61,563 nt of DNA from Aurantiphycus algarum (GCA_947492865.1 CANLOR010001096.1:1-61563), one strand, 5' to 3'; shown: positions 3,574-60,651, counted from the first letter of the stretch. Numbers and translations are program-made. The notes: generated from the sequence alone by a model not told the origin.

Positions 3574-3604
3574 TTTTCTTCTTTTTGGTTTGATGATTAA
3601 TTTT

Positions 3605-21600: not shown

Positions 21601-22687
21601 CGATGATCATCATGGTGGGGACGGCATCCGCTTCGACCAAGGGCAGTCTTGCTTTGGCATGTGCTACATCGACAGGAATGTAAATGGCCCCTAGTTTCAA
21701 AATGGCCAATAGGCTGAAAATCAAACGTTCGTCTTTTTCGACACAAAGTACCACTTTGTCACCGCTGGAGAGGCCGTGGGTTTTGGAGTAGTAGTTGGCC
21801 AATTGATTCGAGGTCTCTTCCAGTTCTCGGTAGTTGATATTTCTATCTCCACACTTCAGGGCTATGGCCTTAGGTGTGTTCTCTGCGTATTTTCCTATCT
21901 TGTCGATAAAGTTGGCTCCACCTTGCTGAGAGACGCTACCTCTGCCCATTTGTAGCAACACTTTCTTTTCTTCTTTACTGAGAAGAGTGAGGTTCCGTAA
22001 CTTTATATCAACGTTATCAACACACTGACCTATCAAATGAACATAGTGCCCGATAAGGTTTTTGAGCAACAGCCCCGTCCTGAGGTGGCCTTTGGCTTCG
22101 ATATCGATTTTATCCTCAGTAGTGGTAAAGTGTAGTTGTAGGGAGGCTACGGAACGAGAGTTTACAACAGTACCATGAAGCGCATCCGAGGAAAGTAACA
22201 CCGTAGGTTCGGGAATCTTTTCCAGTCCAAACTCCTTATAGACTCTATCCAATGGGTAGTTCCCATATCGCTTGGACTTTACCAAAGTCTGCTGAAAGGA
22301 AATCAACCATTCCCTAAAGGTCGTTTCACTATTCATATGCTTCCGGAAAGGAAGAAAAGTGTTGATAGGGCTTCCTTCGGCACTTTGGAAAGGTGGGGAA
22401 TAGGTCAGTAGTGCCCTTTCGCCTGTGTAGCGACTTAGGAGTATATGGAAGGTAGCTTGCAAAAAAATGTATACTGCGAGGTCATTTTGCTTACAGAGAC
22501 CCATTACCTTTTTGGAAGTCTCTACGTCCACTATACCGGCATGAGTGGTAATGGCCTCCGATACATCCACTATTTCAATACGCTCATTAAAATCGGCTCC
22601 CTTTAATACTTCTTGCCAAAACCGATGCCCTTCCACAAATCCCCTTTGTGTCAACAGTAACTTCTCTTCTAAACTATTTTTACTCAT
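3605..22687 (-). CDS. Six-module NRPS with terminal thioesterase: halfC-A-T-C-A-T-C-A-T-C-A-T-C-A-T-C-A-T-TE
   Basis: Track ORF of 6360 aa with ATG at 22685-22687. A3 motifs (YTSG[ST]TGxPKG) lie at about 21.46, 18.27, 15.06, 11.89, 8.73 and 5.55 kb, a spacing of roughly 3.2 kb. T-domain GG[HQ]SL motifs lie at about 20.29, 17.09, 13.91, 10.74, 7.58 and 4.45 kb. C-domain HHxxxDG motifs lie at about 19.70, 16.49, 13.34, 10.16 and 7.00 kb. The TE has 'GYSMG'. The N-terminal 250 aa or so align only to the C-terminal lobe of a C domain and have no HHxxxDG. Confidence 0.97.
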   Translation of the reverse strand: MSKNSLEEKLLLTQRGFVEGHRFWQEVLKGADFNERIEIVDVSEAITTHAGIVDVETSKKVMGLCKQNDLAVYIFLQATFHILLSRYTGERALLTYSPPFQSAEGSPINTFLPFRKHMNSETTFREWLISFQQTLVKSKRYGNYPLDRVYKEFGLEKIPEPTVLLSSDALHGTVVNSRSVASLQLHFTTTEDKIDIEAKGHLRTGLLLKNLIGHYVHLIGQCVDNVDIKLRNLTLLSKEEKKVLLQMGRGSVSQQGGANFIDKIGKYAENTPKAIALKCGDRNINYRELEETSNQLANYYSKTHGLSSGDKVVLCVEKDERLIFSLLAILKLGAIYIPVDVAHAKARLPLVEADAVPTMMIIDRNQTYKPGTTPYLYQEEVWEGLEGLSSKFEPTYFPRDIAYILYTSGSTGKPKGVKVSYRNLNGFLSHVQSHFTWHRPLIMPFIASNAFDIAMFQVFLPLVQGGTVDILMPEVVLDIANFVGRIKEATVVDTVPAVYRQVATYILENNAQKEFEHIVHLFIGGDSVPDRLLIMLSDAFPKASISVTYGPTEATVFCTAITYSNDTFSKSSVSGSIIGRPMPGTDIYLLDKENNLVPEGVKGEICIGGSGVTLGYHNRGELSATKFVDNPFQKEDILYRTGDIGMWDSMGQVRFSGRDDFQVKIRGYRIELGEIESRLLEYTDLEDVCVLAHEDSEGSKYIIAFYIGGETDPRAFQGTLKQYLPEYMVPAFFVALREWPLNPNQKIDRKALMHLYEERRATRQEYREASTAIEKSLVDIWQEILGLKKVGVNDNFFEVGGHSLKVAQLVSKIHQELAIKPSLEEVFQNPTIVALSKILENKTSSRYQPIESVKNDTLGKGFAISHAQRRLWILDQLEEDQVAYNIPLAVLLTGDLNREVLRIAFEKSIARHEILRTTFGSIDEQPVQIVKSPEDTDFDLGYVDLRDSHVDRNSLKQLAEKEAVQPFDLSEGPLLRVKLYRIADNEHLFLLTVHHIIVDGWSMQVLMSELCNYYNAYLQGQDADIPPLAIQYKDYAAWQYNQLDGAVFTSSKNYWLEQFSGEVPVLQLPTDYKRPIVKTYNGGSFHRSLGKGLSEQVHDFAKRQGLSLYMVLVAATKALLYRYTGQDDIVIGSPSAGRNRSDLENQIGFYVNTLALRTRFSGGEGFGSLLQKVKENLVKAYDHQDYPFDMLVDNLDLERDLSRSPIFDIMVSLQNLNEVSIDDLKLEGLSSAMLEGDVSTSMFDLSIDFTPEDDGELFLAISYNSDLFGGHRMERMSTHIEHILRDAISNPTKPLDYLKYLSEEEESLFLETYNNTFKDYQKGKTMITLFEEKVAFYGTGTAVVFGEERLTYNRLNERANRLAHRLIAEGCGPEVLVGIMAERSPEMIVAVLAVLKSGAGYLPIDYTYPAERIRYIIEDADINLLLFNTGKETIQDLSVGGVLDLNNEDTYSKDISNPQISHDEDNLAYVIYTSGTTGKPKGVMVTHRSLVNIAQCWIEEYGLSDKTTVLQMASFSFDVFCGDLCRSLLSGGKLVLCPDEARLDPAGLFGIMEKHQVSVLEVTPSYAVPLMSYIFDKELDISWLNMLILGSDSCPVGDFKTLLARHGADIRIINSYGTTETTIDSSFYEVSSVDQVEDIPYVPIGKPMANTKFYILDKNRQFVAEGLVGELCIAGTGVARGYLNKKNLTDERFVKDPFNGGVMYLTGDTAKWLPDGQVEFLGRKDNQVKIRGYRIELDEIEQVLLESPEVKEAVVLVLTGKDDVNDRFICAYYTPANILRVTVSEEIRQFVTERVPEYMVPQHFVVLEKMPLTVNGKVDRKSLPKPNAVENSLSYEPPRNETEKQLVALWEKILNIEEVGIRHHFFKLGGHSLKAIRLIGAINKAFQVSLSIKQIFQHPTISELAKCLLATMEKASEESIVIKETEETENSVYPLSSAQLRLYALYQLNPKSLVYNMPQALLIRCKVDIDHLRGIFDTLIARHEIFRTSFRSEGGTPVQVISDEWDFEIEHVESFDWKLNGKEVLQEIRHFIKPFDISSGPLLRIKIIELREVDQELYLILIDKHHIIIDGISEDLISYEFSQLYSGFELPKVETKYRDYALWQQKLNDSDTLISQKNYWLAQFENDIPQLELPTDHIRPDSITGSGDNVSIVFDKYQLRTLKDYCEEQGVTLFMFMLTAYYLFLSKYSNQEDIIIGTVTSGRQNPAFRSVIGMMVNTIALRARPKGDKMIKTFFNEVKAISVEAFENQDFQFNDLVEALHLDTKAGRRPLFDVMISYHNEEESNDQLQESHIEPYELEGQQSSKFDLTLHCVEYDDGIRLGLEYSTELFLKSTAERMLGHYTFLLKEIIGSPERLLSDIELLTKEERNQWLIDYNDTRVPLPDTDNIPRLFEQQVQNSPQSVALVYDDVALTYTELNEKANRLAHTLKNKGLAKGTPVGLLLDKSQELIIGILGILKAGGAYLPIDIDFPSDRIGYVLSNSKMNLLLVTLNDTVLKLLEEQQLGSVELLMLDSEEVYAEISDNPPSTIMPSDLAYIAYTSGTTGKPKGVMVEHRNVIRLVKNTNYVELDSQTKILQTGSISFDATTFEYWGALLNGGELHILPQEELLKTDSLKQKLIESRISTMWMTSSWFNQVVDHDIEVFSSLSWLLVGGEALSPHHINEVRDRFPKLKLVNGYGPTENTTFSLCYTIDKKHEVNIPIGKPISNTTAYIVDRWGNICPTGVSGELYLGGEGVARGYLGDHQLTKAKFVEKPFAKGTLYQTGDKAQWRSDGLISFMGRVDDQVKIRGFRIEPSEIECTLLQNPNLEKVKVMAWGNEENEKSLCAYFVKTSDAKETDALTLKRSLEKLLPVYMIPTDYIELTSLPLTVNGKIDVGSLPRPDKATIRKTYEAPGNAVEERLVEIWQDVLQKERIGIQDNFFEIGGHSLKAIRVITGISKVFDVELTFKQIFETPTIAELAIVLDKSQKQTFEPIGRVPSAEYYDVSHGQKRLWILQQLEGEAASAYNMPAAYLFEGPLDIKALKASFDQLIERHEILRTTFTLVEGQVKQIIRPWKNLDIPYTDLSEIEASEDKAKSMANEEARVPFDLEEGPLIRAKLIKLSAHKYVFLLTLHHIISDGWSLEILFNEVADFYNAYKNGKNPSPAALRIQYKDYALWQKDQFPDGEISVAEKFWVEQFEDGPPILDIPTDFIRPPVKTYKGEMAGILLSSEVTEALNTLALQHEASLFMTILATVNAFLYRYTGQQDIVLGTPIAGRNHPDLEDQIGFYINTLALRTQFSGEEGFDRLLENVTERTFEAFEHQMYPFDALIDSLSLEREMSRASLFDVMVILQNTSGIVGGSKEMEELHVKTFSAEATHAKFDLTFNFEEVEEGLYLWLNYNRDIFLHQTIERMLAQYETLVLSLTLDPSRPLSTLSILPEKERLVLSDTFNNSTTDTTLFKDITLQDLFEDQVSRTPGLTALVDEFGSITYRSLDEKTTKLANMLRAKGTKAGHPVGIYVGRSTEMVISILAVLKSGAYYIPIDPEYPASRITYILKDSNVGQLLTDRDLPKKVREIIALNVIRFDDLDFEKMAFSEPDEVKVSSDSLAYVIYTSGSTGTPKGVMVRHRSVVNFSKWLGELLYDRTGMVALHTSSFSFDMSVKQLFAPLYHGATVVISTQESKQSPASYLKLIIDNKVDTVDFTPSFLEVILQYAESSSTFLNLKSVLLGGEPLKEGLVRLFYDRVPDGRLLNMYGPTEATVDATATWVELEDTVTIGKPLPNVGIYIVNDSLQLQPIGVPGEICIAGAGLAKGYLNRPKLTEEKFVDSPFRKGEKLYRSGDVGRWLPDGHIEYIGRKDRQVKLRGYRVELGEIERLLEEYPQVEKSVVMPILKEGMTVSLVGYLKTREDLSLKSIASYLEELLPEYMVPGRFFFLKEFPLTANGKVDIDALPSPSAVSDVTGTVYVAPRTALEKQLADIWENLLSVERVGLDDDFFSLGGHSLSAMRMISMVYGQLGVALTLRQVFRNPTLDGLAAVLSAADRSSFAMISPVPNSEYYGVSHGQKRLWVLHELEDGASVAYNMPRAYRLRGTLDIEALSEGFSRSVSRHESLRTTFRMVDGEVRQTVGAFHGFGMDLRDLREEANPEARALELAEEEALLPFDLEKGPLLRAGLLRLSGEEHVLLLTLHHIISDGWSMDIFLSEVTAVYNALASGSDLYREPLRIQYRDYSSWQQEQLDAHGNEHESYWLGRFKGDIPVLDLPTDHPRPRVKTYKGDTVGMELSRTTVEGLRSLSALYGASLFMTVLATVRVLLYRYSGQEDTIIGTPTAGREHPDLEGQTGFYVNTLALRSVLDGGAGFGTLMEQEREDVLSALRHGIFPFDRLVDRLSLDRDMGRSPLFDVMVSLQRSEGVIGGAMELEGISVEPLGTGMDRSKFDLTFNFEEGERGLYLGINYSTDLFSRDTVSRMLSHYELLVASVIASPDAALESLDMLSSEEKKLLLEDFGSGTPQELSPKDTLHGLFVRQAGETPDMEAVADGHRSLTYRELDDRSTALAHLLRERGVGKGHPVAISTDRSVDTVMAILATLKAGAHYIPLDPDYPQSRTDHIVEDSGVSLLLMVGARPAVSISGPCAVLDIGSCNLETPKEVGPPVSVSATDLAYVIYTSGSTGRPKGVMVEHGAVVNLTGWLAGMLYGEKGLSVMLTASFSFDASVQQLFAPLLHGARLVVSPASVKQSAREYLGFLERYRTDIVDLTPSFLEILLQSAEVEALSGISYVLVGGEPLRTTLVQRFHELVPEGRLINVYGPTEATVDTTFTELSKNDSITIGGPIPNAKVHIVNKGLRLQPIGVPGELCISGAGLARGYLNLPELTEERFTDSPFVLGEKLYRSGDMARWLPDGRIDFLGRKDSQVKLRGYRIELGEIEHQLESHPAVEGAVVLPVLNDGHVEHLTAYCKTVRETEEDTLIAHLREVLPEYMLPSRFIMMEEFPLNTSGKVDIKSLPIPSKGVVGYTAHSPARTALEKQLAGIWENLLSVERVGLDDDFFSLGGHSLSAMRMISMVYRQLSVELKLRDIFTTPTLGGLSEIIDGSKGKIQREIAKVPLSEYYDVSHGQKRLWILHQLEGKEARAYNMSEVYRIKGRLEVRALSESFKHLLYRHEVLRTGFKTIDGVLKQYVRSVDDYHLEQTDVSDREWDEDRLSSMIHDYTSEYFDLEAGILIRLRLVELSAEEHVLVLGMHHIISDGWSMELLIRDLVLFYNYCSSGISHKLEPLPFHYKDYAHWQVLELSDNEGDTHGHRAYWLKQFEGELPVLKLPMDRVRPAIQTYNGSTESILIGRELKQDLEGLGKKYKASLFMVLLASTKALLYKYTHQNDIIIGTPIAGRNHPGLEEQIGFYVNTLALRSKIDAEKGFVHLIESVRDTMIDAFEHQVYPFDKLIEELGLPQDMSRSPLFGVMVTMQESNIDEQEFGMESLQVEAVTSDTGTSKFDLTFSFQNVSDKLYLNLNYNTDLFGKYRIDRLMAHFKNLLTALVERDTAPIKEISYIDESEERLIREDFNATELHLPTSRTVIQLFEEQASLKQQGVAVYCGEEHITYDELNRRANQFARDLLRNVPFKRGERIGLVTYRDVHAITAMLGIMKAGAAYVPIDPSYPKDRIKNIIADAELSTLIVDKYWDRHPERLGARSTMALQDIVERHFLSPAENLDIDYAQGDLAYTIFTSGSTGRPKGVMVNHKSLLNLCLWHNAEFDVGQESKTTQYAGIGFDAAVWEIWPCLIAGGELHIIEDNAKLDVLAIGKYIAFNGITHTFLPTPVCENFVKEVPLNTSVLLLTGGDKLAIVDNPGFRLVNNYGPTEATVVATSLRLENINNSDIPIGRPISNMKVYIVDEGDKLCGIGVVGELLISGMGLSEGYVNNEDVTAKNFVDDLFVENSRWYRTGDLGMWMPDGNIRFMGRKDDQVKIMGNRIELGEIESVLLSHEKVKSAKVVVIGEERSKYLAAYIIPAQHCTEVELKSAVEGLLPIYMVPESFVFLEHYPLTANGKIDSTQLPNANKQVQEYSTASTDLEQKLQKAWAKVLEQTAPGITDNFFKSGGQSLKAASLVTQIFTETGEKVTLKDIYNHPTIQSLATYIEGERDDDLLISLNEAEEGKTEKLYMVPPVIGTPLIFKGLSSFLQGRYQCMGLQYKGYNEGERPDTSIDAISDSLLSQVLKTQNTKEVTLFGYSMGAAIAFEMAKKAENRGYTVTLILVDKEVPGTAQKSMDTNELENIIDTELRHWMAVLSESHIETMRRVLHSNLLALHNYTPTGQVKGNIYAIEARDNPCATDMQEWDRLTQARCFVQETEGDHYGILNKENILSLTDKIMNIRSVETV
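3608..4315 (-). other. Thioesterase (TE) domain, the chain-release domain of the assembly line
   Basis: These are the last 236 aa or so of the 6360-aa protein. The GxSxG nucleophile is 'GYSMG' (Ser codon about 4052-4054). Candidate Asp ('ILVDKE') and His ('EGDHYG') lie downstream. It directly follows the last T domain. Confidence 0.85.
7542..7675. repeat. Direct repeat copy A (134 nt), N-terminal half of the module-5 T domain
   Basis: My hand alignment to 10698-10831 shows 8 mismatches in 134 nt. The offset is 3156 nt, so the copies are in frame. This copy encodes RTALEKQLAGIWENLLSVERVGLDDDFFSLGGHSLSAMRMISMVY. Confidence 0.9.
10698..10831. repeat. Direct repeat copy B (134 nt), N-terminal half of the module-4 T domain
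   Basis: Partner of 7542-7675. The encoded peptide is identical except for one residue (LAD versus LAG). Confidence 0.9.
21983..22645 (-). other. N-terminal half condensation domain (C-terminal lobe only, no HHxxxDG) of the 6360-aa NRPS
   Basis: The residues align to the second half of a C domain. 'HRFWQEVL' matches the YWxxxL region, 'AVYIFLQATFHILLSRYTGERALLTYSP' the C5 region, 'INTFLPFR' the C6 region and 'YGNYPLDRVYKEFGL' the C7 region. Nothing upstream corresponds to C1-C3. Confidence 0.75.
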
Positions 22688-22774: not shown

Positions 22775-25700
22775 TTAAAAATTAAATACTTCACCTTCAT
22801 CAAACATATCGGTCTCCGATACAGCGGGTTTGTGGTCCATCCTATCGGTACTCAGTTCTAGGTCGATGAGGCTTTGATTCATATCAGTGGACATCATAGA
22901 GATGACTTTTTGAAAATGTCCGACGAACAGTACCATTTCAGCTCGATGGAATCTTCCCACAGGATAGGTTAGGGTTCCCGTCAATCCGCCTCTCGGATTT
23001 TCGAATATCATGATATCCACATCAAAATCACTCGGTACCTTACCGGCTATATCCGGGCTGATCGATACCCCGGACAGGGTATTTTCCATACCATCATTCT
23101 TTTCGTAGGAAAACAGTATATTGAACAGAGGGCGTTGATGGGGGTTGTTTTCTGCCCCCAATATTCTTACCAATTCATCGAAAGGGTATTCCTGATGATC
23201 CCATGCAGCGTATACATTATTCCTTACTTTGGACAATAGGCTCCCTAGCGTATCTTCTTCGGCCAACAATGTCCTTATAGCCAATACGTTGACATAGCAT
23301 CCTATCTGATGTAAGATGTCCGGATGATCTCTACCCGATATGAGACTACCAATAATGATATCTGTATCTCCGGTATACCGGTATACAAGGGTTTTTAAAC
23401 AGGATAGTAATAGGACAAACATTGTAGAATTTTTTTCCGAACCGATCTTATCAAGCCGATCTGCCTGCTCCTTTGGTATGGAAAAATCCAATACATCAGC
23501 ACCTTCCGTACTATTGTCCCCTTTGGAACCGAAGGGCAGGGATACCCATTGTCTGGGTGCCTTCAGGTATTCCATCCAAAAAGCCTTGTGCTGTGCCATT
23601 TTGTCAGAATTCATCCATTGATTCTGCCATTCGGCATACTCTTTATACTGTAGAGTCAATGGTGCCGGTCTGTATTCCTCATTTTTTATATCAGCATTGT
23701 AACTATCACCTATTTCACTGACAATCAACTTTAAAGACCATGCATCTGATATGATATGGTGCATCGATAAGGCCAATCGATATTTATCCTCTCTTAACTG
23801 CACTAGTAATACCCTGAACAAAGGCCCCTTCTCAAGGTCGAAGTCCGTATTTACTTCTTTTTTGATCAAAGCATGTACTTCTTCGCCTGCATCTTCCTTG
23901 CCTCTAAAGTCATGGTAGGTTACAGCAAAACCGCATTCTTCTGCTGTATCGATTTTCTGCACGGGCAGTCCATCCAACGTTGGGAAGGTGGTCCTCAATA
24001 TTTCATGTCTTTTCACAATACCATCAAAAGCTTTTATAAAACTGCCGACCTCTAGGTATCCATTAAGAATATAGCCGCCCGAAATCGCATAGTCTGTACC
24101 ACCACCTTCTCTTTGGGACAAAAGCCACATTCTACGTTGGGCCGGTGAGAGTTCATAATAGGCTCTTTCTTCGAGTGGTGCAATGGGAGCGTAATTCTTC
24201 TGCTGTTGAGAAAGGAGAAATCCAGCAAGAGAGGCAACGGTCGGGTACTGTAGGACACTACTTATCTCGATGCTATAATGGAGCTGTTTCTTGATTTTGC
24301 CGACCAAGCGGGTGGCTATCAAGGAGTGTCCTCCCAGTTCAAAAAAGTTATCGTCAATACCTACTGGCCGCACTTCGAGTAGTTCTTCCCAAATAGGACA
24401 CAGCTGTTCTTCCAATTGATTTCCGGGAGCTGAAAATAACGTAAGGGGCTGCACTGGTACACTTCGCTCGAGCAGTGCTTTACGGTCGGCCTTTCCACTG
24501 GACAATAGAGGCATAGCCTCTAGTTCGACCCATATTCGGGGAATCATGTACCTTGGCAATTTCGATGCTAGGTACATTTCTGTCCTTGCCCTGTCCAATA
24601 CTCCTATTTTGACAACATAACCTATCAGCTGACCATCTCCATTCCTTTCTGATTTAATACAGACTGCTTGACTGATTTCCGGTATTTCAAGTAAAACCTG
24701 TTCGATTTCGCCCAGTTCGATACGGTATCCTCTCAGCTTTACCTGGCCATCCTGCCTACCCAAGAACTCAATAGTACCATTGGGCAACCACCGTCCCATG
24801 TCTCCTGTCCTGTATACCTTTTCTGTAGAATAGATAGGATGAGAAAGGAACCTCTCCTCGGACATTGACCCTTGGTTCAGATATCCCCTTGCCACCCCAT
24901 CACCACCGATGTAGATTTCGCCCTTTACATTCAAGGGACATAGGTTTCCGGTCTTGTCCAGAATCAATACATGCTCACCTTTCAGTGGCCTACCAATGGA
25001 CAAGCTATCCTCTCGCCCTATATCCAAGCTCGTACTCCATAGGGTCGTTTCCGTAGGGCCATATACATTGAATACCTTTGTGTCACCCAACTCTTTCAAA
25101 CGACCATACTGATAGGGGCTTAGCACCTCTCCTCCTACCAGCAAGACTTTGAGCTGGCGCAAACACGTTATCTCTCCATCCTTCAACTCCAGCAGTTGAC
25201 TCAATCGGGAGGGCGTAAGTTGTAACGCATCTATTTCGCCTTTGTCGATGTGCGCCAGCATGGTTCGTGGATCCTCATCCATTATCAAGGTGTGCATGCC
25301 ATTGGCCAAGGTACCCAACAGCTCCATGACGGAGACATCAAAAGAGTAATTGGTAATAGCACCGAAGGTCATACTGGGCAGTAAGTGGAAATTACTCTCC
25401 ATATTTTTGAAAAAGGCCACCACATTTTTATGCTCGACCATCACTCCTTTAGGTACGCCCGTAGAACCGGATGTGTAGAGGACATAGGCAAGGTCAAAAG
25501 GCCTGCTCACCAAATCAGGGTTATCTTTAGTGTATTTGGAGGCCGTATCCACCAACTTTTGCAGCGCTTTGGTATCAATGACAGAACAGCAGCCACTCTC
25601 GGACAATAGCCTATCGATACGGTCTTGTGGCCAATCGTTTTCCAAAGGTAGGTAGGCGGCACCCGTCTTGAGAATACCCAGTATCGTTACTACGGTCCAA

Positions 25701-28618
25701 TGACTTCTATCCAGTTGGATAGCCACAATATCTCCTGCTTGAACATAAAGTTCTCTTTTAAGGTATTCTGCACATTGGTTTGCCTGCTCGTTCAGCATTT
25801 GATAGGATAGGGAAGTATCCTTGAAGGTGAGTGCCCTCCTGTAGGGATACCTCTCTACCTGCTCTTCAAAGAGACTTACAATAGTACCGGTGGTGGATAT
25901 GGAAAGCGTGTCCTGTGTATTGAAACTGTTCTTTAAAACCGTCAATCTTTCCAAGCTGTCCATAGTAGCTTGATAATCCACTCCAAAGTCTGTCAGACAG
26001 GCAATCTCATCAACTCCAATTTCAGAAGCTGCTTTCAGCTGACGCCGACAGGTTGCCTCGGTACCTATCAAAGCGGTGTTTTCCACATGCCATTCGAAGG
26101 AATGCTCCAACATATCGCTGAGATCTTCTTTACTGTAGTCTTGTAAAGAAATGTCCGCATTCGTACTTTGCCCCAACTTATCGGAAAGCTGGAGTGATTG
26201 TAAGAGATACTTCATGAGGGGTTCTTTGGTGACGCTATACGCCTGCTCTTCGTCTTTGCCCAGATAAGTATGCATCATCAGTGCCACTTTTGCCTTTCCG
26301 ACGGGATGACCGTTCTCTGCATATGCCTCTCGGTAAGCATCTATCTTCGGTCTCAAGGATTCCGGTGTGGTGTTCAATAGGCCCGTTAAGATATTCATTC
26401 CCAGATGACCTGCCTTTTTGAAATTATCGATATTACCACTTATGGTCATCCATATGGGCAGTGTTTTACGGTATGGTTTTGGAAAAATCTCGCAGGCTTG
26501 TATTACTCCATTGCCATCTTTAAAGGATACTGTATCGCCTCTCCATAATTTTTCTATATACTGGATGTTTTGATACATGATATCATGACGCCCATCGAAG
26601 CTATCGGGAGAAAGGACAAAATCATTGGCATTCCATCCAGGTGCACAGGCAATACCCACCCTGCCCTGAGACAAATGGTCCACCACTGCCCACTCTTCGG
26701 CCACTCGTAGTGGGTGATGCAGTGGAAGGACCACACTTCCTGCCCGAATACCAATAGTCTCGGTAATGGCCGCTATCGCGGCACCGAGTACCGAAGGGTT
26801 AGGGTAAGGGCCTCCAAACGGGTGAAAATGGCGCTCGGGGGTCCATATGGCCGAATACCCGTGCCTATCAGCGTACCTTGCCCCTTCCATCAAAAACCGA
26901 TAGCCATCGCTTTCCATACCTTCACTTCCAAAATACAGGAGACTAAAGTCCATTTTAGCCGCTCTTGAACCACTAGGTGGAGGTATATGATGGCTGGCTC
27001 TAGGGGACAAAGGTCTTGTATGCTCCAGTGCACCGAATTCCAATAGTTGCTTTTTCTCTGTTTCTGTCAAGAAGTTCAGTGAGCTGATAGGCTGATGAGG
27101 TTTTTTCAGTACCTGTTCCATCATTTGGATCAGGTGTTCGAAGAATCTACTAACGGTACTTTGGTCATAGATGTCACAGTTGTATTCCAATCCGGTCTTC
27201 AGACCTTCAGCTGTTTCGGATAGGTTTATGATAAGGTCAAAAGCACAATAGGGAACCCCCGCCCCCTCATAGCCCCGTACTTCCAATCCATCCAGTGCTT
27301 CCCGCACTAGATCCGGTTCGAAATCGGTCTCTTGGGACTTTTGCAAAATCAAGAATACATCGAACAAAACACTTCTCTCCAAGTTACGGGCAGGATTCAG
27401 TTTGTTTATCAGCATATCAAAAGGATACTGTCGGTGTTCGTAAGCCTCCAATGTACTACTTTTCGCCAGTTCCAGTAGTTCCGTAAAAGAAAAAGATCCG
27501 TCGAATCGTGTCCTCAAGGCCAGTGTGGCCGCATAGAAACCTATCTGATCTTTTAGATCGGGATGATCTCTATCCGCTATAGGAAAGCCGATAACCGTAT
27601 CTTCTTGTTGCGTATAGCGGTAAAACACCGTATTGAGCACCGCTATAAGTCCCATAAAAAGGGTTCCTCCCCGCTCACGACAGAAAAGCTTAAACCGCTG
27701 GAGTAATTCTTTGTCAATATACCGATGTATGGCTTCTGCATTATAGGTTTTTATGGCCGGTCTCTTTTTCTTTGTAGGCAGTTCCAATACGGGTATTTCA
27801 CCCTCAAATTTCTTTAGCCAATACGCCTCGTCTTCTTTGAGCTGTCTGCCTTTCAGCTGGGCAAGCTTCCATAGCGTATAGTCCTTGTAATGTATCCTCA
27901 ATGGCTTCAAGGGCTTTGTGTTTCCTTGGGTAGCTGCCTTGTAAAATAGTAGCAATTCATCTTTTAGAATGTTCATCGACCAGCTATCTCCAGTGATGTG
28001 ATGGAGCACATTGACCAGCACCCATTTGTGATCTGTCATCCAATAGAGTGAGGCGCGCAAAACCGGCCCCGTGGACAAATCAAAGGGCTTCCCGACCTCT
28101 TCTCGCAACAGACTGTCCAGTTCTTCTTTTTCCTTATTTTCCGAACGAAGGTCCACTTGGGATAATCGGAAGCCTGCCTGCTTCCCGGAAAGTATGAACT
28201 GTCTTACCTCTTCACCTTGTCCCATACGATATACCGTACGTAAGCTCTCATGACGCTCGATGAGCCCTTCAAAGGCAAAAATCAATGCATCGATATCCAG
28301 ATTTCCTTCGAATATGGCAACTTGGTTCATGTTATAGGCCACACTGCTTTTTTCGCTTTGGCTTATGATCCAAGACCTTCGCTGTGATGGTGATAGTGGA
28401 TAACCGAACTCACTGACGGGTGCGGGAAGTATACACGGACCATCCACATGTTGCTTTTGCTGCAAATAGCTAACAATAGCTTGTTTATGCTGTGCTATCT
28501 CCTCCAGAACCATCTCCGATATTTCATTGTCCGGGTAATTTACCTCTAGGTCCGTTCCGGAGAGTGCGATGTTAATATCACTACCGGCAAGACGTTCGAT
28601 CAAGCTCTCTGTATTCAT
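22775..28618 (-). CDS. NRPS: docking domain-C-LLM(monooxygenase)-A-T-C
   Basis: Track ORF of 1947 aa whose start overlaps the PKS stop by 4 nt. The first C domain has 'LHHITGDSWS' (about 27.99 kb). A luciferase-like domain follows ('MDFSLLYFG...GYSAIWTPERHF...RVAEEWAVVDHLSQGRVGIA'). The A3 motif 'YVLYTSGSTGVPKGV' is at about 25.47 kb and the T motif 'FFELGGHSLIATRL' at about 24.33 kb. The terminal C domain has 'MHHIISDAWS' (about 23.75 kb). The protein ends in an acidic tail '...DMFDEGEVFNF'. Confidence 0.95.
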   Translation of the reverse strand: MNTESLIERLAGSDINIALSGTDLEVNYPDNEISEMVLEEIAQHKQAIVSYLQQKQHVDGPCILPAPVSEFGYPLSPSQRRSWIISQSEKSSVAYNMNQVAIFEGNLDIDALIFAFEGLIERHESLRTVYRMGQGEEVRQFILSGKQAGFRLSQVDLRSENKEKEELDSLLREEVGKPFDLSTGPVLRASLYWMTDHKWVLVNVLHHITGDSWSMNILKDELLLFYKAATQGNTKPLKPLRIHYKDYTLWKLAQLKGRQLKEDEAYWLKKFEGEIPVLELPTKKKRPAIKTYNAEAIHRYIDKELLQRFKLFCRERGGTLFMGLIAVLNTVFYRYTQQEDTVIGFPIADRDHPDLKDQIGFYAATLALRTRFDGSFSFTELLELAKSSTLEAYEHRQYPFDMLINKLNPARNLERSVLFDVFLILQKSQETDFEPDLVREALDGLEVRGYEGAGVPYCAFDLIINLSETAEGLKTGLEYNCDIYDQSTVSRFFEHLIQMMEQVLKKPHQPISSLNFLTETEKKQLLEFGALEHTRPLSPRASHHIPPPSGSRAAKMDFSLLYFGSEGMESDGYRFLMEGARYADRHGYSAIWTPERHFHPFGGPYPNPSVLGAAIAAITETIGIRAGSVVLPLHHPLRVAEEWAVVDHLSQGRVGIACAPGWNANDFVLSPDSFDGRHDIMYQNIQYIEKLWRGDTVSFKDGNGVIQACEIFPKPYRKTLPIWMTISGNIDNFKKAGHLGMNILTGLLNTTPESLRPKIDAYREAYAENGHPVGKAKVALMMHTYLGKDEEQAYSVTKEPLMKYLLQSLQLSDKLGQSTNADISLQDYSKEDLSDMLEHSFEWHVENTALIGTEATCRRQLKAASEIGVDEIACLTDFGVDYQATMDSLERLTVLKNSFNTQDTLSISTTGTIVSLFEEQVERYPYRRALTFKDTSLSYQMLNEQANQCAEYLKRELYVQAGDIVAIQLDRSHWTVVTILGILKTGAAYLPLENDWPQDRIDRLLSESGCCSVIDTKALQKLVDTASKYTKDNPDLVSRPFDLAYVLYTSGSTGVPKGVMVEHKNVVAFFKNMESNFHLLPSMTFGAITNYSFDVSVMELLGTLANGMHTLIMDEDPRTMLAHIDKGEIDALQLTPSRLSQLLELKDGEITCLRQLKVLLVGGEVLSPYQYGRLKELGDTKVFNVYGPTETTLWSTSLDIGREDSLSIGRPLKGEHVLILDKTGNLCPLNVKGEIYIGGDGVARGYLNQGSMSEERFLSHPIYSTEKVYRTGDMGRWLPNGTIEFLGRQDGQVKLRGYRIELGEIEQVLLEIPEISQAVCIKSERNGDGQLIGYVVKIGVLDRARTEMYLASKLPRYMIPRIWVELEAMPLLSSGKADRKALLERSVPVQPLTLFSAPGNQLEEQLCPIWEELLEVRPVGIDDNFFELGGHSLIATRLVGKIKKQLHYSIEISSVLQYPTVASLAGFLLSQQQKNYAPIAPLEERAYYELSPAQRRMWLLSQREGGGTDYAISGGYILNGYLEVGSFIKAFDGIVKRHEILRTTFPTLDGLPVQKIDTAEECGFAVTYHDFRGKEDAGEEVHALIKKEVNTDFDLEKGPLFRVLLVQLREDKYRLALSMHHIISDAWSLKLIVSEIGDSYNADIKNEEYRPAPLTLQYKEYAEWQNQWMNSDKMAQHKAFWMEYLKAPRQWVSLPFGSKGDNSTEGADVLDFSIPKEQADRLDKIGSEKNSTMFVLLLSCLKTLVYRYTGDTDIIIGSLISGRDHPDILHQIGCYVNVLAIRTLLAEEDTLGSLLSKVRNNVYAAWDHQEYPFDELVRILGAENNPHQRPLFNILFSYEKNDGMENTLSGVSISPDIAGKVPSDFDVDIMIFENPRGGLTGTLTYPVGRFHRAEMVLFVGHFQKVISMMSTDMNQSLIDLELSTDRMDHKPAVSETDMFDEGEVFNF
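25931..26953 (-). other. Luciferase-like (flavin-dependent) monooxygenase domain embedded in the C-A linker
   Basis: It covers about aa 556-896 of the 1947-aa protein. It begins right after the normal C-A linker ('LTETEKKQLLEFG') and ends just before the pre-A1 region ('IVSLFEEQVERYPYRRAL'). The sequence pattern is typical of the natural-product LLM domain family (MupA / MtaG-MOx-like). Confidence 0.8.
28454..28609 (-). other. TubC-type N-terminal docking domain
   Basis: Residues 4-55, 'ESLIERLAGSDINIALSGTDLEVNYPDNEISEMVLEEIAQHKQAIVSYLQQ', follow the L..L...G..L...G..L.v..P......l...l..HK..i...L pattern of TubC-like docking domains. The domain sits at the N-terminus of the protein that must receive the chain from the PKS. 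Confidence 0.55.
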
Positions 28619-31600
28619 ATTTTGACCGTTTTCCTTTCGATGAGATTCTTTTTTACCTTGGAGATCTTGATCTGGTCCACCAAGGTCGCTAATTTTCGAA
28701 TGGTTGATTTTTCAAAAAAGTCCTTAAGTTTCAGTTCGACCTCTGTATCGTTTCTGATGGTGTTGACCAATATCATTCCATTGAGTGAGTCCCCTCCTAT
28801 CTCTAAGAATTCATCATCAATGCCAATATTTTCATTGCCAAAAAAGGTTTGGTATATACGTCTTAGTGTCTCCTCGGTTGGGGTACCCTGGTACTTTCCA
28901 AAATCACTATCATGCTGTACTTGGCCAGTGCTGTCCGCTGGTGTATTCCGCTTATTTTCAGTCTCCTTATTCGGTGCATTTTTTTCAAAATCCGTGAAGG
29001 GATCGACCTGGACGGGATACGGAGTCTGTGCAAATGCATAGGTAGGTAGAGGGACCTTAGTTCTTTTTTCTTGTTGATAATAGCGGTTCCAATCGACTTC
29101 TATTCCTTCGGACCAGATATTTCCCAGACAGTTGGCAAAGAACTCCCCATCGTTGATGGTCTCCCTTTTTCCTTTTACGGGATTTAGGGGCGATTGCGAA
29201 TGGGCCATTTGTTCATTCGCAAGAGAGGTCAGTGTATTGCCCGCACCTATTTCTATAAACAGGGCATTTTCATGCTCCTGTACGCTAGTCGCTATGCTCC
29301 TAGAAAACTGCACCGTTTCCCTCATCTGTCGGACCCAGTACAGAACGGAAGTTGCCTCCTCATCGCGAATGAACTCACCTGTTACACTGGATATAAAGGG
29401 AATATTGGGCTTATGGAGTTCGACTCTCTCTACTGTTTCATGGTACTTTTCTTTGATAGGATCTTGTATGCCCGAGTGGAATGCATGAGAGGACCTTAGT
29501 GTCAGGTGCATAACCTCTGTATCGTCCAAGGCCGCTCTCAATGCTGAAATAGCAGACGGTGTTCCCGAGAAGACAAGTTGTGATGGGCTGTTTATTGCTG
29601 CCAGATACACACCTTCGTTCAGGTATGGAGCAGCAGCTTCCTCAGTTAGGGAGGCACTGACCATACTACCGCGCTCCAAGCCATCCATCAGCTCTCCCCG
29701 TTTGACCATGAGCCACAGTGCATCTTCTAAAGCGAACACTCCGCTCAAGCATGCTGCCACATACTCTCCGAGGCTATGTCCGATCATAAGATCAGGCTCG
29801 ATACCATAGGACATCATCAATTTGGCCAAGGCATATTCCATCATGAAAATGATAGGTTGAGTATATAAGGTTCTGTTGATATCATTATCAATCCCATCTT
29901 CCGTGAAGAGTACTTTTTTGAAGTCCTTCCCCGTGAACTTTTCGATAGTAGCAAAGCCCTCATCCATCTCTTGTCGGAATACCCACTCGCTTCCATATAG
30001 TTTTCGGGACATATTGAGGTATTGTGTGCCTTGCCCTGGAAACATGAAGACCACGGGCCTTTTATCCTTTCTCTGTGTTTTCTGTTGCTCCTTTGAGTTA
30101 GCGACCTCTAGAAAACGTATGAGATCCTCCTTGTTCGTACATACTCTATGTTGTCTATATTCGAAGTGCTCCCGACCTGTCAGTAAAGTATAGCACATAT
30201 CCGCAAGGTTTACTTCATGCTCTTCTTTGATGAACTGAGCCAATCTACACTTGTAATCGACCAGTGATTTCTCCGATTTGGCTGAGATGGTCAATAAGTG
30301 AAACTCCTTTCCCAAGCTACTCTCCATAGGCTTCGGTGCCTCTTCTAAAATAGCATGGGCATTGGTCCCGCCCACTCCAAACGAACTGACCGCCGCACGA
30401 AGTGGGGCATGATCGTCACTCTCCCAGTGGGTCAGTGCTGTATTGACATAAAAAGGGCCGGCCTCAAAGTCTATCTCAGGGTTGGGCCTATCATAATTTA
30501 TGCTGGGGGGTATTTTCCTATACTTTAGGCACAGTGCGGTTTTTATCAATCCTGCTATGCCAGCTGCCGAATCGGAATGGCCTATGTTCGATTTTACAGA
30601 GCCGATAGCACAGCTATGATGGATAGTATTGCCAAAAGCCATGTTCAAGGCTCCTACTTCAATAGGATCTCCCAAACGGGTACCCGTACCGTGCGCTTCT
30701 ACATAACCGATACTTTCCGGCTTTACCCCAGCTATATTTTGGGCTTTCTTGATGCAGGCTACCTGTCCATCCATGGAAGGGGCAGCATAGCCTACTTTTG
30801 CATTGCCATCGTTATTGGTTGCGCTACCTTTGATTACCGCATAGAGATGGTCGCCATCATCGATAGCCTCTCGGAGTCTTTTCAGAACGACAGCGCCCAC
30901 TCCCTCGCTGCCTACCGAACCACTTGCCTGCGTGTCAAAGGCCCGACAGTGTCCATCCGATGATTTTATAGAACCTTCTTCGTAGAAGTACCCTTCTTTT
31001 TGTCGGGTGTTGACAGATACGCCTCCCGCGATGGCTATTTTCGCTTCTCCCATAAGTAGTCCCTTACAAGCGAGGTCTACCGCTGATAGGGCACTGGAGC
31101 ATGCTGTATTTATGAAAAATGAGGGTCCTTGTAAATTCAATTTATGAGAAACCAGCGTGGTGAGGTGGTCCTTTTCGCTCAAAAAACCCAATGCGATATC
31201 ATGTTGCCTCCGTTTTTGATTTCCGAGCATTACATGGGCCTTCCAGTTGGAGTCATCCCCTGCGCCTGCATATAAACTGATTTTCCCATTCACAGCCGAA
31301 GGTACGTAACCCGCATCTTCCAGTGCTTCCCAAACACACTCATGGAACTGACGGTGGATAGGGTTCAACACTTCTGCCTCATACTGGCCATAGCCAAAAA
31401 AAGAAGCATCGAAGGTGTCTTTGCCCTTCATTGTGGCCCTGACCTTGACAAAGTCTTTGCGATTTATGCTTTCTTCGTCCCATCCTTGTGCCTTCAGTTC
31501 ATCATCGGAAATCCTGTGGAGGGCTTCTTTTCCTTGAATCAGGTTATCCCAGTATTCTCTCCAGTTGGCAGCATCGGGAAAACGGCATGCCATTCCCACA

Positions 31601-31647
31601 ATGGCAATTTCCAATCCGGTATAGTCAGGGTATGCTTCAGTTTTCAT
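28615..31647 (-). CDS. Type I PKS module KS-AT-CP with no reductive domains; malonyl-type AT
   Basis: Track ORF of 1010 aa. The KS has active-site Cys 'TACSSAL' (Cys codon about 31099-31101) plus 'EAHGTGT' and 'KSNIGHS'. The AT has 'FPGQGTQY', 'GHSLGEY' (Ser about 29773-29775) and 'HAFHS' (about 29476-29487, a malonyl-type motif). The carrier protein has 'EIGGDSL' (Ser about 28786-28788). No KR, DH or ER sequence is present. The gene overlaps the upstream gene by 11 nt and the downstream gene by 4 nt. Confidence 0.95.
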   Translation of the reverse strand: MKTEAYPDYTGLEIAIVGMACRFPDAANWREYWDNLIQGKEALHRISDDELKAQGWDEESINRKDFVKVRATMKGKDTFDASFFGYGQYEAEVLNPIHRQFHECVWEALEDAGYVPSAVNGKISLYAGAGDDSNWKAHVMLGNQKRRQHDIALGFLSEKDHLTTLVSHKLNLQGPSFFINTACSSALSAVDLACKGLLMGEAKIAIAGGVSVNTRQKEGYFYEEGSIKSSDGHCRAFDTQASGSVGSEGVGAVVLKRLREAIDDGDHLYAVIKGSATNNDGNAKVGYAAPSMDGQVACIKKAQNIAGVKPESIGYVEAHGTGTRLGDPIEVGALNMAFGNTIHHSCAIGSVKSNIGHSDSAAGIAGLIKTALCLKYRKIPPSINYDRPNPEIDFEAGPFYVNTALTHWESDDHAPLRAAVSSFGVGGTNAHAILEEAPKPMESSLGKEFHLLTISAKSEKSLVDYKCRLAQFIKEEHEVNLADMCYTLLTGREHFEYRQHRVCTNKEDLIRFLEVANSKEQQKTQRKDKRPVVFMFPGQGTQYLNMSRKLYGSEWVFRQEMDEGFATIEKFTGKDFKKVLFTEDGIDNDINRTLYTQPIIFMMEYALAKLMMSYGIEPDLMIGHSLGEYVAACLSGVFALEDALWLMVKRGELMDGLERGSMVSASLTEEAAAPYLNEGVYLAAINSPSQLVFSGTPSAISALRAALDDTEVMHLTLRSSHAFHSGIQDPIKEKYHETVERVELHKPNIPFISSVTGEFIRDEEATSVLYWVRQMRETVQFSRSIATSVQEHENALFIEIGAGNTLTSLANEQMAHSQSPLNPVKGKRETINDGEFFANCLGNIWSEGIEVDWNRYYQQEKRTKVPLPTYAFAQTPYPVQVDPFTDFEKNAPNKETENKRNTPADSTGQVQHDSDFGKYQGTPTEETLRRIYQTFFGNENIGIDDEFLEIGGDSLNGMILVNTIRNDTEVELKLKDFFEKSTIRKLATLVDQIKISKVKKNLIERKTVKI

Positions 31648-34258
31648 GGCTATTTTCGTTGATCAGTTTAATGGTATTTTTCATCAGGGCCGTCGAAGCC
31701 TCGATATCCCCTGTTGATTCTTGAAGGTTTTTCTTTGTTATTTTCAGAATATAATCCGATAGTGCAGAAACATTGGAGTACTTGAATGCCGACAGAATGG
31801 GCAGTTTCAATCCCAGCTCTTCGTTTATCCGGTTGATCAGGATAGCTATTCTGATAGAGTTTCCCCCAGAACTGAAAAAGCTATCTTTTACACCTACTTG
31901 CTCGGTAACCAGTATCTGCTGCCAAATCTTGAGCAGCCTTTGTTCCATCTGTTTTGTGGACGGGGTACCCTTGTACACACCTTTGGCTTGTGGTCTTTTT
32001 TGAACGGATAAGGCTTTTTCGTCTATTTTACCGTTTTGGTTTAAGGGCATTCGCTGTCGCTGCTCGATAAATACGGGTATCATATAGGTTGGCAGGCACT
32101 CCATCAGGTGACTATGAACATACTCGGTTTCCAGAGTTTCCTTACTGACAAAAAATGCGGCTATAGCCTTTTCCTGTTCCTTGTTTACTGTTAAGGTGGC
32201 AATTGCTTCATCGATTTCAGGAAGTAGGAGCATAGTATTTTCTATTTCTCCCAGTTCTATTCGGTAGCCTCTGACCTTCACTTGTCTATCTCGGCGGCCC
32301 AGAAACTCCAGCATTCCTTTTTCGGTCAGCCTAGCGGTATCTCCCGTTCTGTACAATCGGTCGTTTTCCGATAAGGGGTTATCGATGAATTGTTTCGATG
32401 TCAGTCCCGGTCGGTTCAGATAGCCTTGGCTAACACCACCTCCTGAAATGTAGATTTCTCCTACACTCCCTTCTTCCACGGGTTTGAGTGCTTTATCCAT
32501 GATAAAAATAGAGGTATTGGGCATAGGACGACCGACGATATTACCTTTTGCCGGACATTGCCCTAAATCCCTACTTTGATAGGTGATAGCAGTACAGAAC
32601 ACAGTAGCTTCGGTAGGTCCGTAGGTGACCGTAATAGTGGCCTTAGGAAACGCAATGGCCATAGAGCGAAGTAGTTTATCCGATATAGTATCTCCTCCTA
32701 TAAAAAGTGATTGTATATGTTTGTAATCTTTCTCGCTGCCATGGTTTATGATCTCATCGACAACCTGCCTGTAGAGTGAAGGTACAGCATCCATGATGTT
32801 GACCTGTTTCAGTTGGTTCACTAGGTTCCCTATATCCATGATATCGGTACTGGAAAACAAATCGACAGTACCCTTGGTCGTAAGGGGCAGTAATAACTGA
32901 AACATAAAGATATCAAAAGCATTGGAAGCTATCAGCGGCATTATGGGTGTCCGTACCCAAGGAAATGCGGTGTGCAGACTATCTACAAATGAGCTGAGGT
33001 TTGCCTCACTGACCTGGACACCTTTTGGTTTTCCGGTTGAACCTGAGGTGTAGATGATATAGGCGATATTCTGCGGAATAGAACGGTATTCGAATCTTGG
33101 ATTGCCCATCGTGATGATGGTCTTCCAGACTTCGTCGATATTGATACATTTTGAGGTCTTGGGCCGAAAAATGGTATGACCTTCCTTGAGTATATACAAG
33201 GGCCGAGCATCTTTCTCTATAAAGGGAAGTCTCGAATCTGCATGAAGGATATCGACGGGCAGGTATACCACATTGGCTTTCATCAAAGCCAGTAGGCAAA
33301 AAATCATACGTTCCGTTCTTTCCATACAGAGTATCACCCGATCGCCTGCCAAAAGCTGCAAATCGGCTCGAAAATAATTGGCCAATTTATTGGAGACGGT
33401 TTCCAGATCATCATATGTAAATGAGCTGCCCGACGTTTTCAGTGCTATCTTGGATGGAGACTCCTTTGCCGTTGCACTTATGATTTCCAGAAAATGCCGG
33501 TTGCCACATTCCCTATCGGGCAGGTTTATTTTTTTGGTCATATCGGACAAGTATAGACCGATATCCTCTATTCTAACATGAGGCCAGTGCAGACATAGCC
33601 TTGCAATAGCGTTAAAATTATCAACAAGGTCCATTAGAAAATCCCTATCTCCCTTCCCCTTCAACTGTAGCGATAGCTTTGATCTGTGAATATGGTAGCT
33701 ACAACAAATGCTATAGGAATCGATGATTTCAGTGTCAAACTTATGCAGCGCTTCGGAGTAGAGGATAATTTCAGGATTACGGACAGGCTGTCTACCCAAC
33801 GACTGATAAACCGTTTCCAATAAGTGGTCTTGGTACTTCCTACATTTTTCGGTCTGTTTTTGAGTGGCGGCAAGTACTGTCCTGAACGTTTGCCCCGACT
33901 TCATTTTACCTGTTAAGGGGAGCAGTGCATTTCCGGGTACCGTCTTCTCTTTTTCACAAAAAGGAGGACAGTATAAGGTTATATCAGCGATACCCAAACA
34001 CTCTGAAAAGGTAATTTTCAGTATCGTCTGAAATAGTATAAATAGGGCAAAATCACTCTTTTTACATACCGAGAACATCTTTTTGGATGTTTCCAAAGGC
34101 AAGTCCACCGTTATACTCTCCATGTTGCCCACGTTGCGCAAACCAAGACGTTCTTCATGGTTACCTTCGGCCAGCACTATAGTCCAAAATCGATCCGCCT
34201 CTTTATAGCTCGGCTGCCTCAACAGGTACTGATCATCCATTTTATTTTCCTCCGGCAT
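31637..34258 (-). CDS. Single-module NRPS: halfC-A-T
   Basis: Track ORF of 873 aa. The N-terminal 245 aa or so are homologous to the N-terminus of the 6360-aa protein ('DRFWTIVL', 'ALFILFQTILKITFSECLG') and have no HHxxxDG. The A3 motif 'YIIYTSGSTGKPKGV' is at about 33.04 kb and the T motif 'FFSSGGNSIRIAIL' at about 31.86 kb. Confidence 0.93.
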   Translation of the reverse strand: MPEENKMDDQYLLRQPSYKEADRFWTIVLAEGNHEERLGLRNVGNMESITVDLPLETSKKMFSVCKKSDFALFILFQTILKITFSECLGIADITLYCPPFCEKEKTVPGNALLPLTGKMKSGQTFRTVLAATQKQTEKCRKYQDHLLETVYQSLGRQPVRNPEIILYSEALHKFDTEIIDSYSICCSYHIHRSKLSLQLKGKGDRDFLMDLVDNFNAIARLCLHWPHVRIEDIGLYLSDMTKKINLPDRECGNRHFLEIISATAKESPSKIALKTSGSSFTYDDLETVSNKLANYFRADLQLLAGDRVILCMERTERMIFCLLALMKANVVYLPVDILHADSRLPFIEKDARPLYILKEGHTIFRPKTSKCINIDEVWKTIITMGNPRFEYRSIPQNIAYIIYTSGSTGKPKGVQVSEANLSSFVDSLHTAFPWVRTPIMPLIASNAFDIFMFQLLLPLTTKGTVDLFSSTDIMDIGNLVNQLKQVNIMDAVPSLYRQVVDEIINHGSEKDYKHIQSLFIGGDTISDKLLRSMAIAFPKATITVTYGPTEATVFCTAITYQSRDLGQCPAKGNIVGRPMPNTSIFIMDKALKPVEEGSVGEIYISGGGVSQGYLNRPGLTSKQFIDNPLSENDRLYRTGDTARLTEKGMLEFLGRRDRQVKVRGYRIELGEIENTMLLLPEIDEAIATLTVNKEQEKAIAAFFVSKETLETEYVHSHLMECLPTYMIPVFIEQRQRMPLNQNGKIDEKALSVQKRPQAKGVYKGTPSTKQMEQRLLKIWQQILVTEQVGVKDSFFSSGGNSIRIAILINRINEELGLKLPILSAFKYSNVSALSDYILKITKKNLQESTGDIEASTALMKNTIKLINENSHEN
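33524..34216 (-). other. N-terminal half condensation domain (C-terminal lobe only) of the 873-aa NRPS
   Basis: It has the same layout as 21983-22645 and visible sequence similarity to it. The catalytic His motif is absent. Confidence 0.7.
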
Positions 34259-35787: not shown

Positions 35788-36011
35788 GAAATAGGCTTCT
35801 CATAATCGGGAAGGAGTAGCCTGTTACAATGCCCCGAACATGGGTACTCATCCTGGGATTTTCATTCCATGGTAAAATAAAACCACCAAATATCGAATGC
35901 CGGACCATTACTTCATCTTCGGGTACAGCGCATTTGACCAGCGGTTTATAACTTTATAAATTACTTCAAGGCCAAGAAAATGGGTTCCATAAATGCCATG
36001 GGCTCCGAATA

Positions 36012-60187: not shown

Positions 60188-60241
60188 ATTTTAGCGTATA
60201 GTTTATATTTTATTCAAACACAAGAATTCCATGAAGGCTGT

Positions 60242-60639: not shown

Positions 60640-60651
60640 AAATAACTTGTT

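Follow-up and report, generated by a model that had tools for sequence, protein, structure and literature searches.

The window analysed here is a stretch of 61,563 nucleotides from Aurantiphycus algarum (GCA_947492865.1, CANLOR010001096.1:1-61563), whose large open reading frames (ORFs) all lie on the minus strand and together form one hybrid assembly line of nonribosomal peptide synthetase (NRPS) and polyketide synthase (PKS) modules. We focus on a luciferase-like monooxygenase (LLM) domain, dependent on flavin mononucleotide (FMN), that is integrated into a 1947-aa protein encoded at 22775-28618 on the minus strand. Pfam and NCBIfam profiles give the order of this protein as TubC-type docking domain, condensation (C) domain, LLM, complete adenylation (A) domain, thiolation (T) domain and a second C domain. 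The N-terminal docking domain (TubC_N, residues 4-54, 28457-28609; PF18563, 27 bits against a cutoff of 26) precedes a C domain (residues 73-526, 27041-28402) whose canonical HHITGDS motif is intact at 27983-28003. A Pro/Ser-rich linker, EFGALEHTRPLSPRASHHIPPPSGSRAAKMD, at 26948-27040 leads into the LLM (residues 558-895, 25934-26947; TIGR04020, PF00296), and a second linker (25871-25933), which holds the normal C-A linker motif KNSFNTQDT..., leads out of it into the A domain (residues 917-1376, 24491-25870), with the glycine-like code DVMQLGVLWK. There follow the T domain, a peptidyl carrier protein of the PP-binding type (residues 1405-1468, 24215-24406), and the terminal C domain (22859-24157, motif HHIISDA), which hands the chain to a 6360-aa NRPS. 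The LLM is inserted in the C-A linker, directly before the usual FNxT motif (...QLLEFG[ALEHT...LLM...LKNS]FNTQDT...LFEEQV), and the A domain lies wholly after it, with an AMP-binding match at residues 917-1247 that covers Pfam profile positions 1-384 of 384 and an AMP-binding_C match besides.

The gene immediately upstream (28615-31647, minus strand) encodes a non-reducing PKS module of 1010 aa, consisting of ketosynthase (KS), malonyl-type acyltransferase (AT) and acyl carrier protein (ACP) domains with no ketoreductase (KR), dehydratase (DH) or enoylreductase (ER). Its motifs are intact: Cys183, His319 and His356 in the KS, GHSLG and the malonyl-specific HAFH in the AT, and GGDSL in the ACP. 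The PKS gene, ending at 28615, overlaps the start of the LLM-protein ORF (up to 28618). The two proteins have a docking pair, in which the C-terminal tail of the PKS (...IERKTVKI) presumably docks to the LLM protein. The identical LLM protein was found on five contigs, including ENA assembly ERZ6864376 and Logan assemblies of the separate runs ERR9287621 and ERR9287624; because the same protein appears both in the metagenome assembly and in separately sequenced runs, its layout is no assembly chimera. The GC profile gives no sign of a recent insertion.

Integrated LLM domains, also called MOx or OX, are alpha-hydroxylases in hybrid assembly lines, and the LLM of the window is a clear member of the TIGR04020 family (the MupA/Atu3671 family of FMN-dependent LLMs), with a score of 445.5 bits against a cutoff of 244.45 over profile positions 1-340 of 341. 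Bac_luciferase (PF00296) matches residues 568-871 at 174.5 bits. An AlphaFold2 (AF2) model of the domain is a TIM barrel (pLDDT 90.8) whose best PDB match is 6KET, the OX domain of PuwE, with which the LLM also aligns at 335 bits, about 45% identity and a TM score of 0.91. A 28-sequence family alignment contains 58 invariant columns, including E38, R39, H40 and F41; the window itself is one of the 28 sequences, so that its sharing of these columns holds by construction. Invariant throughout the family, His40 (protein His597, 26828-26830, minus strand) is part of the PERHFH motif where strand beta2 ends and lines up with the luciferase active-site His region. An earlier reading of the DNA sequence alone (hereafter the sequence-only reading) had proposed an LLM at 25931-26953, in the C-A linker and outside the A domain, directly downstream of a non-reducing PKS module and within the module for residue 7. 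The boundaries, placement, enzyme family and upstream neighbour described above all agree with that proposal; the numbering fits as well, since module 1 is a fatty acyl-AMP ligase (FAAL) and the amino acid of the LLM module is therefore the seventh. Loss of conserved LLM residues, which the same reading had named as the mark of a relic, is not observed: the ERHF His and the invariant columns are kept.

The placement of the LLM between C and a complete A domain is rare. Our survey covered about 160 related loci recovered with an LLM alignment (80 from genomes and 80 from metagenomes) and 240 database proteins. A search with the LLM alone returned no relative above 56% identity, and the genome and metagenome scans likewise; its best matches, most of them from Chitinophaga or metagenomes, were free-standing LLMs, of which some have a TubC-type dock. 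A query spanning the end of C, the LLM and the start of A retrieved more than 100 proteins with C, LLM and A, and mapping their domain order with the window's own domains put the LLM inside the A domain in every one: in all 117 matches the insertion separated motif A4 from motif A5 at A-domain position ~214, as in MtaG and MelG. The mapped loci comprised about 120 such A-inserted modules, many of them followed by KS-AT-T instead of a thioesterase (TE), about 30 free LLMs, a few ACP-LLM fusions together with puwainaphycin-type KS-AT-(AMT)-LLM-C-A-T proteins (AMT, aminotransferase), and nine loci with C-LLM, which were either myxobacterial ACP-C-LLM-C-A-T or MxgE-like C-LLM didomains with HPxxxD. 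The order NRPS, non-reducing KS-AT-ACP, C-LLM-C-A-T was seen in the myxobacterial loci L055, L082 and L073, and MxgE-like didomains after KS-AT-T in L150, L144 and L066. C-LLM followed by a complete A domain occurred in none of the 80 genome and 80 metagenome loci.

Two further observations concern the other placements. MtaG-like C-A(Gly)-LLM-A-T modules were mostly non-terminal: dozens of loci, spread over Acidobacteriota, Myxococcota, Gemmatimonadota, Bacteroidota and Actinomycetota, have them ahead of KS-AT-T or, where a C domain is lacking, as apparent starters (L004, L005, L010, L012, L014, L015, L018, L019, L024, L087, L092, L098, L101, L103, L119, L121 and others), which implies chemistry other than terminal-amide release. 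Free LLMs with a TubC_N dock of their own occur after a terminal C-A-T with the non-glycine code DAMHVGGITK (L002/L003, gene 3340-4683; P0001-P0013), in clusters that also hold CmlA-like, ABC, type II TE and SbnA/SbnB-like genes.

The sole further C-LLM-A protein that we found, although others may exist as the representative-protein search was swamped by ordinary multi-A NRPSs, is a 3591-aa protein (P0277) at locus L167 of assembly GCA_025989125.1, probably Chitinophaga nivalis. That representative-protein search also recovered the window's own protein. Its order is dock-C-LLM-A-T-C-A-T-C-A-T, and it is preceded by a 1017-aa KS-AT(HAFH)-ACP protein without KR that is 51% identical to the PKS of the window and shares with it the C-terminal tail ...RKT(V/I)(K/T)I. 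The A domain after its LLM has the non-glycine code DILDFGSIFK. Since this A domain is not specific for glycine while the PKS is the same, the conserved partner of C-LLM-A appears to be the non-reducing PKS and not the amino acid, a partnership regardless of the downstream amino acid that rests on this one homologue. The two LLMs are 55% identical, and because the layout has been kept in a second genome at only this level of identity, it is probably under selection. C-LLM-A is thus a new architecture of an already known enzyme family, with two cases so far, and the window and its Chitinophaga counterpart represent a fourth LLM placement, in the C-A linker and tied to a non-reducing PKS module.

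To our knowledge, current annotation tools cannot tell which carrier-bound substrate an integrated LLM acts on. A scan for class-discriminating alignment columns pointed to position 189, which in the window is Gly189 (protein Gly746, 26381-26383, minus strand), the last residue of strand beta6. This position was His in 116 of 121 A-inserted LLMs of glycine modules, in all three free LLMs after glycine A-T modules and in all five free LLMs after other NRPS modules, giving 124/129 for aminoacyl-acting LLMs against 0/23 for PKS-coupled LLMs, which have Ser, Asn, Ala or Gly instead. The 23 PKS-coupled sequences fall into several separate tree groups: cyanobacterial free LLMs, puwainaphycin-type fused LLMs, ACP-LLM fusions, myxobacterial ACP-C-LLM-C, MxgE-like C-LLM and P0277, which has Asn. 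Gly189 is also found in a free LLM after KS-AT-T (L151), and, outside the 23, a Chitinophaga free LLM of the Bacteroidota clade has Asn189 beside a FAAL-KS-AT-ACP-AMT synthetase. Position 169 behaves similarly, as the Ile of the window was found solely in PKS-coupled LLMs and in 0/121 of those inserted in A domains. By HMMER alignment, positions 169 and 189 lie opposite LuxA Val173 and Trp194, and in the AF2 model both residues lie on the catalytic face of the TIM barrel, 169 directly behind beta5 and 189 where beta6 ends on its C-terminal side. The choice between His and a small residue at 189 appears to separate LLMs acting on glycine or other aminoacyl groups from those acting on polyketides, making it a candidate predictor of substrate class.

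The OX domain of PuwE from the puwainaphycin synthetase and those of cyanobacterial AMT/OX modules belong to the same LLM family, and PuwE also has a residue other than His (Asn) at 189. PuwE OX stands between non-reducing PKS and NRPS modules and has been assigned C2 hydroxylation of the PKS-built unit (PMC4219810, PMC13252402). However, PuwE is a single KS-AT-ACP-AMT-OX-C-A-T protein in which the LLM comes before C and is paired with an aminotransferase, whereas in the window the ACP ends one protein and dock-C-LLM-A-T opens the next, neither the PKS nor the LLM protein has the AMT domain that stands beside OX in a PuwE-type cassette, and the beta-keto group is retained. In the myxoglucamide pathway, the C-Ox didomain MxgE fuses a C domain to an FMN-dependent monooxygenase and acts on a PKS-extended amino acid; mutagenesis showed that it is needed for alpha-hydroxy/alpha-keto amide formation, and H548A abolished alpha-oxidation (PMC13638107). 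His597 of the window is presumably the equivalent of H548. Unlike the window, MxgE is a free-standing didomain with a non-canonical HPxxxD C domain, while the HHxxxD domain ahead of the LLM here is the module's only C domain, and the MxgC PKS of the MxgE pathway is reducing (DH), leaving no beta-keto group.

MtaG and MelG, of myxothiazol and melithiazol biosynthesis, and the C-A(Gly)-LLM-A-T class as a whole share with the window the LLM family and a glycine-type A domain, and in myxothiazol the preceding PKS module likewise leaves C3 oxidised. MtaG and MelG hydroxylate the alpha-carbon of glycine within a terminal-amide logic (PMC11411415, PMC10204066). Their LLM lies between A4 and A5, a terminal TE follows and His189 is the rule of their class, whereas the LLM of the window lies in the C-A linker, has Gly189 and is followed, after T, by a C domain and six further modules; the window thus has the glycine A domain but differs in the other three of these four features. 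It does share with PKS-coupled LLMs a position directly after a PKS carrier and a residue other than His at 189. The LLM of the window most likely works in the manner of the PuwE/MupA/MxgE-like PKS-coupled alpha-hydroxylases, differing from them in its C-LLM-A position, its lack of an AMT and the canonical HHxxxD C domain ahead of it.

We consider it likely that the LLM catalyses FMNH2/O2-dependent alpha-hydroxylation at the PKS-to-NRPS hand-over, with C2 of the incoming beta-ketoacyl chain as its target. This is favoured because P0277 keeps the PKS but not a glycine A domain and because the LLM of the window is without the aminoacyl-type His189; for the chemistry itself, PuwE (a 2-hydroxy group beside a PKS module) and MxgE (alpha-OH followed by alpha-keto) are precedents. 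The sequence-only reading had offered two substrates, C2 of the beta-ketoacyl unit and the alpha-carbon of residue 7; the same two lines of evidence support the former and make the latter less favoured, and the mid-line chain cleavage that it had also raised is the least supported of its suggestions.

From the observed domain content, domain order, motif integrity and comparative patterns, we infer the substrate, the timing and all of the chemistry as follows. The C domain that ends the first synthetase would join a lipopentapeptide to amino acid 6, which is probably an arylglycine produced through the HmaS-like, oxidase and aminotransferase genes of the cluster. KS-AT-ACP would add malonate to give 4-amino-3-oxoacyl-S-ACP with no ketoreduction. 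The tail of the PKS would then dock onto the TubC-type domain of the LLM protein. With the chain presented at the C domain by the ACP, or just after condensation, the adjacent LLM could oxygenate the doubly activated C2, using O2 as co-substrate and FMNH2 supplied by a reductase whose gene is unlinked and lies beyond the window. The canonical C domain would amidate the chain with Gly-S-T, and six further modules and the TE would complete a 13-residue lipopeptide. The expected feature of the product is a 2-hydroxy-3-oxo-4-aminoacyl-Gly unit; a second oxidation at C2, as proposed for MxgE, would turn it into a 2,3-dioxo unit amide-linked to Gly, in other words a vicinal tricarbonyl, hydrated or not.

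Several observations weigh against oxidation at C2, and most of them bear on an alternative in which the LLM hydroxylates the alpha-carbon of its own T-bound glycine, amino acid 7, as a positional variant of the MtaG, MelG and SolF modules. The alpha-hydroxyglycine could be kept or could collapse, in which case the upstream lipopeptide would be released as a beta-keto primary amide and a glyoxylyl group would be the starter for the last six modules. The A-domain code DVMQLGVLWK is of the glycine type and close to the class consensus DILQ[LM]GM[IV]WK (codes were extracted by our own motif anchoring, not with a dedicated predictor), and ~93/96 of the integrated, A-inserted LLM modules in the database carry that glycine code, with the LLM thought to hydroxylate the Gly alpha-carbon. 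Free LLMs also occur directly after glycine A-T modules (L105, L141, L143). None of the 12 PKS-coupled LLMs examined precedes a glycine module, so the window is atypical for that class too. In the neighbour-joining LLM tree, its LLM forms a long basal branch of a Bacteroidota clade in which A-inserted and free LLMs are intermingled, but this tree tracks taxonomy more than architecture and is not decisive on substrate. The position-189 rule is correlative and has five exceptions, all A-inserted LLMs with Asn (L059, L079, L109, L134, L159), and position 189, which we take to be in the active site, is assigned there from the luciferase alignment, from the luciferase literature and from the AF2 secondary structure. 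Precedent also exists in glycine modules that act mid-line with a flavin monooxygenase, either integrated (module 4 of SolF, solanimycin) or free (skyllamycin); in both, alpha-hydroxyglycine is retained and the chain goes on (PMC10204066). MtaG, moreover, comes after a non-reducing PKS module (PMC10204066, PMC11411415). The oxygenase of SolF, unlike that of the window, lies between A8 and A9, and its substrate is Gly, which is not the substrate favoured here.

The affinities of the neighbouring domains can be read against the same alternative. The A domain of the window scores 370 bits to the split A domains of Bacteroidota Gly-LLM modules, compared with 291 for the best A domain of its own cluster, but its highest scores, 450-474 bits, are to dock-C-A(Gly)-T modules that are intact and have no LLM; for this reason the module looks like an ordinary glycine module that has gained an LLM in its linker, and the case for descent from an MtaG-type module is weakened. 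The C domain carries no specific signal, with 358-399 bits to C domains of Bacteroidota Gly-LLM modules, up to 454 to ordinary Bacteroidota C domains and at best 343 within its own cluster. The Chitinophaga homologue, with a non-glycine A domain behind the same non-reducing PKS, and the Gly189 of the window, set against His in nearly all aminoacyl-acting LLMs, both argue against a glycine substrate. The cleavage variant has the further difficulty that no TE or hydrolase follows the T domain. We regard action on glycine as possible but rather unlikely. Other peroxyflavin chemistry on the beta-keto unit seems improbable: double oxidation with C1-C2 cleavage would give an alpha-keto-beta-amino acid (an alpha-ketoamide), and a Baeyer-Villiger insertion could also be envisaged. 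Alpha-ketoamides are exemplified by myxoprincomide, the jahnellamides and the cyclotheonamides, and the proposals for myxoprincomide and jahnellamide reportedly involve a PKS module plus a MOx domain. Alpha-keto-beta-amino acids do occur in nonribosomal peptides (PMC9811515), type II Baeyer-Villiger monooxygenases have the same fold, and the three myxobacterial loci named above pair a non-reducing KS-AT-ACP with C-LLM-C-A-T. Yet loss of C1 would require an extra step, we found no open text in the literature confirming an alpha-ketoamide mechanism, and where the myxobacterial type has C-LLM-C, the window has just one canonical C domain. Finally, the domain could be a catalytically silent structural insert, an idea prompted by the long branch and by the absence of the His189 typical of its closest relatives. 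A full-length 445-bit match, the ERHF His with all the invariant columns (subject to the construction of that alignment) and a confident TIM-barrel model speak against it; a decayed relic is unlikely because the domain is intact and its layout has been kept at 55% LLM identity in a second organism, and we give a silent insert very little credence.

The remainder of the assembly line frames the proposed hand-over. The upstream megasynthetase (39227-60187, minus strand) comprises FAAL-T, five C-A-T modules, two of them with N-methyltransferase inserts, and a terminal C domain. The amino-acid-6 module (31637-34258, minus strand) is split from its own C domain and consists of a ~250-aa half-C-like N-terminal domain, A and T; its A domain, with code DIFDFGTVFK, supplies the amino acid that the PKS extends, and judging from the sequence its substrate is possibly an arylglycine. 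The code DIFDFGT[IV]FK is common to three A domains, those for amino acids 4, 6 and 8. Tailoring genes at 34264-39196 encode a Phe-4-hydroxylase::aminotransferase fusion, an HPPD/HmaS-like dioxygenase and a GlcD-like FAD oxidase, forming an arylglycine-type cassette with the GlcD-like FAD oxidase where an FMN mandelate oxidase is usual; Chitinophaga locus L167 also has homologous aminotransferase and HPPD-like genes. The downstream 6360-aa NRPS (3605-22687, minus strand) has six modules, for amino acids 8-13, and ends in a TE.

Two modules are split alike, in an unusual way: a full C domain and an acidic tail, ...FNF (39227-39400; 22775-22900), close the upstream protein, and its partner opens with the homologous ~250-aa half-C-like domain, matching Pfam Condensation profile positions ~186-356, before A (33505-34258; 21938-22687). 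This layout may represent a dedicated solution for docking between C and A. The cluster end holds a CmlA-like diiron beta-hydroxylase (199-1818) and a cyclic-peptide ABC exporter (1912-3573), and because of the former the product probably also bears a beta-hydroxy amino acid. No genes for a flavin reductase, an MbtH-like protein or a phosphopantetheinyl transferase were visible in the window. The ~1.4 kb upstream of the FAAL start (60188-61563) contains no ORF of at least 60 aa on either strand and presumably serves the operon as its promoter or regulatory region.

If the LLM oxidises C2 of the incoming beta-ketoacyl chain, as we prefer, it would give the product a strong electrophile, either a hydroxy-ketone or a tricarbonyl such as protease inhibitors employ. 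A more far-reaching proposal, to which we attach a low probability, is that the C-LLM-A junction has the specific task of making an electrophilic warhead, in which C2 is oxidised twice and the chain amidated to give a vicinal tricarbonyl (4-amino-2,3-dioxoacyl-Gly) within the 13-residue lipopeptide, and that the His/non-His switch at position 189 is a general predictor of LLM substrate class. The peptides YM-47141 and YM-47142 from Flexibacter sp. (Bacteroidota) contain a vicinal tricarbonyl (PMC7291377), which is the structure expected from an amino acid plus malonate when C2 is doubly oxidised and the unit amidated, and their source belongs to a related phylum. As depsipeptides they are much smaller than the product expected here. 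No gene cluster for them was found in the searchable literature, so the likeness is a chemical analogy only. Were the proposal true, the window would offer the first genetic and enzymatic basis for Bacteroidota tricarbonyl peptides of the YM-47141 type. The main value of these findings may lie in a route to alpha-oxidised beta-keto-gamma-amino acid warheads, together with a candidate marker of LLM substrate.

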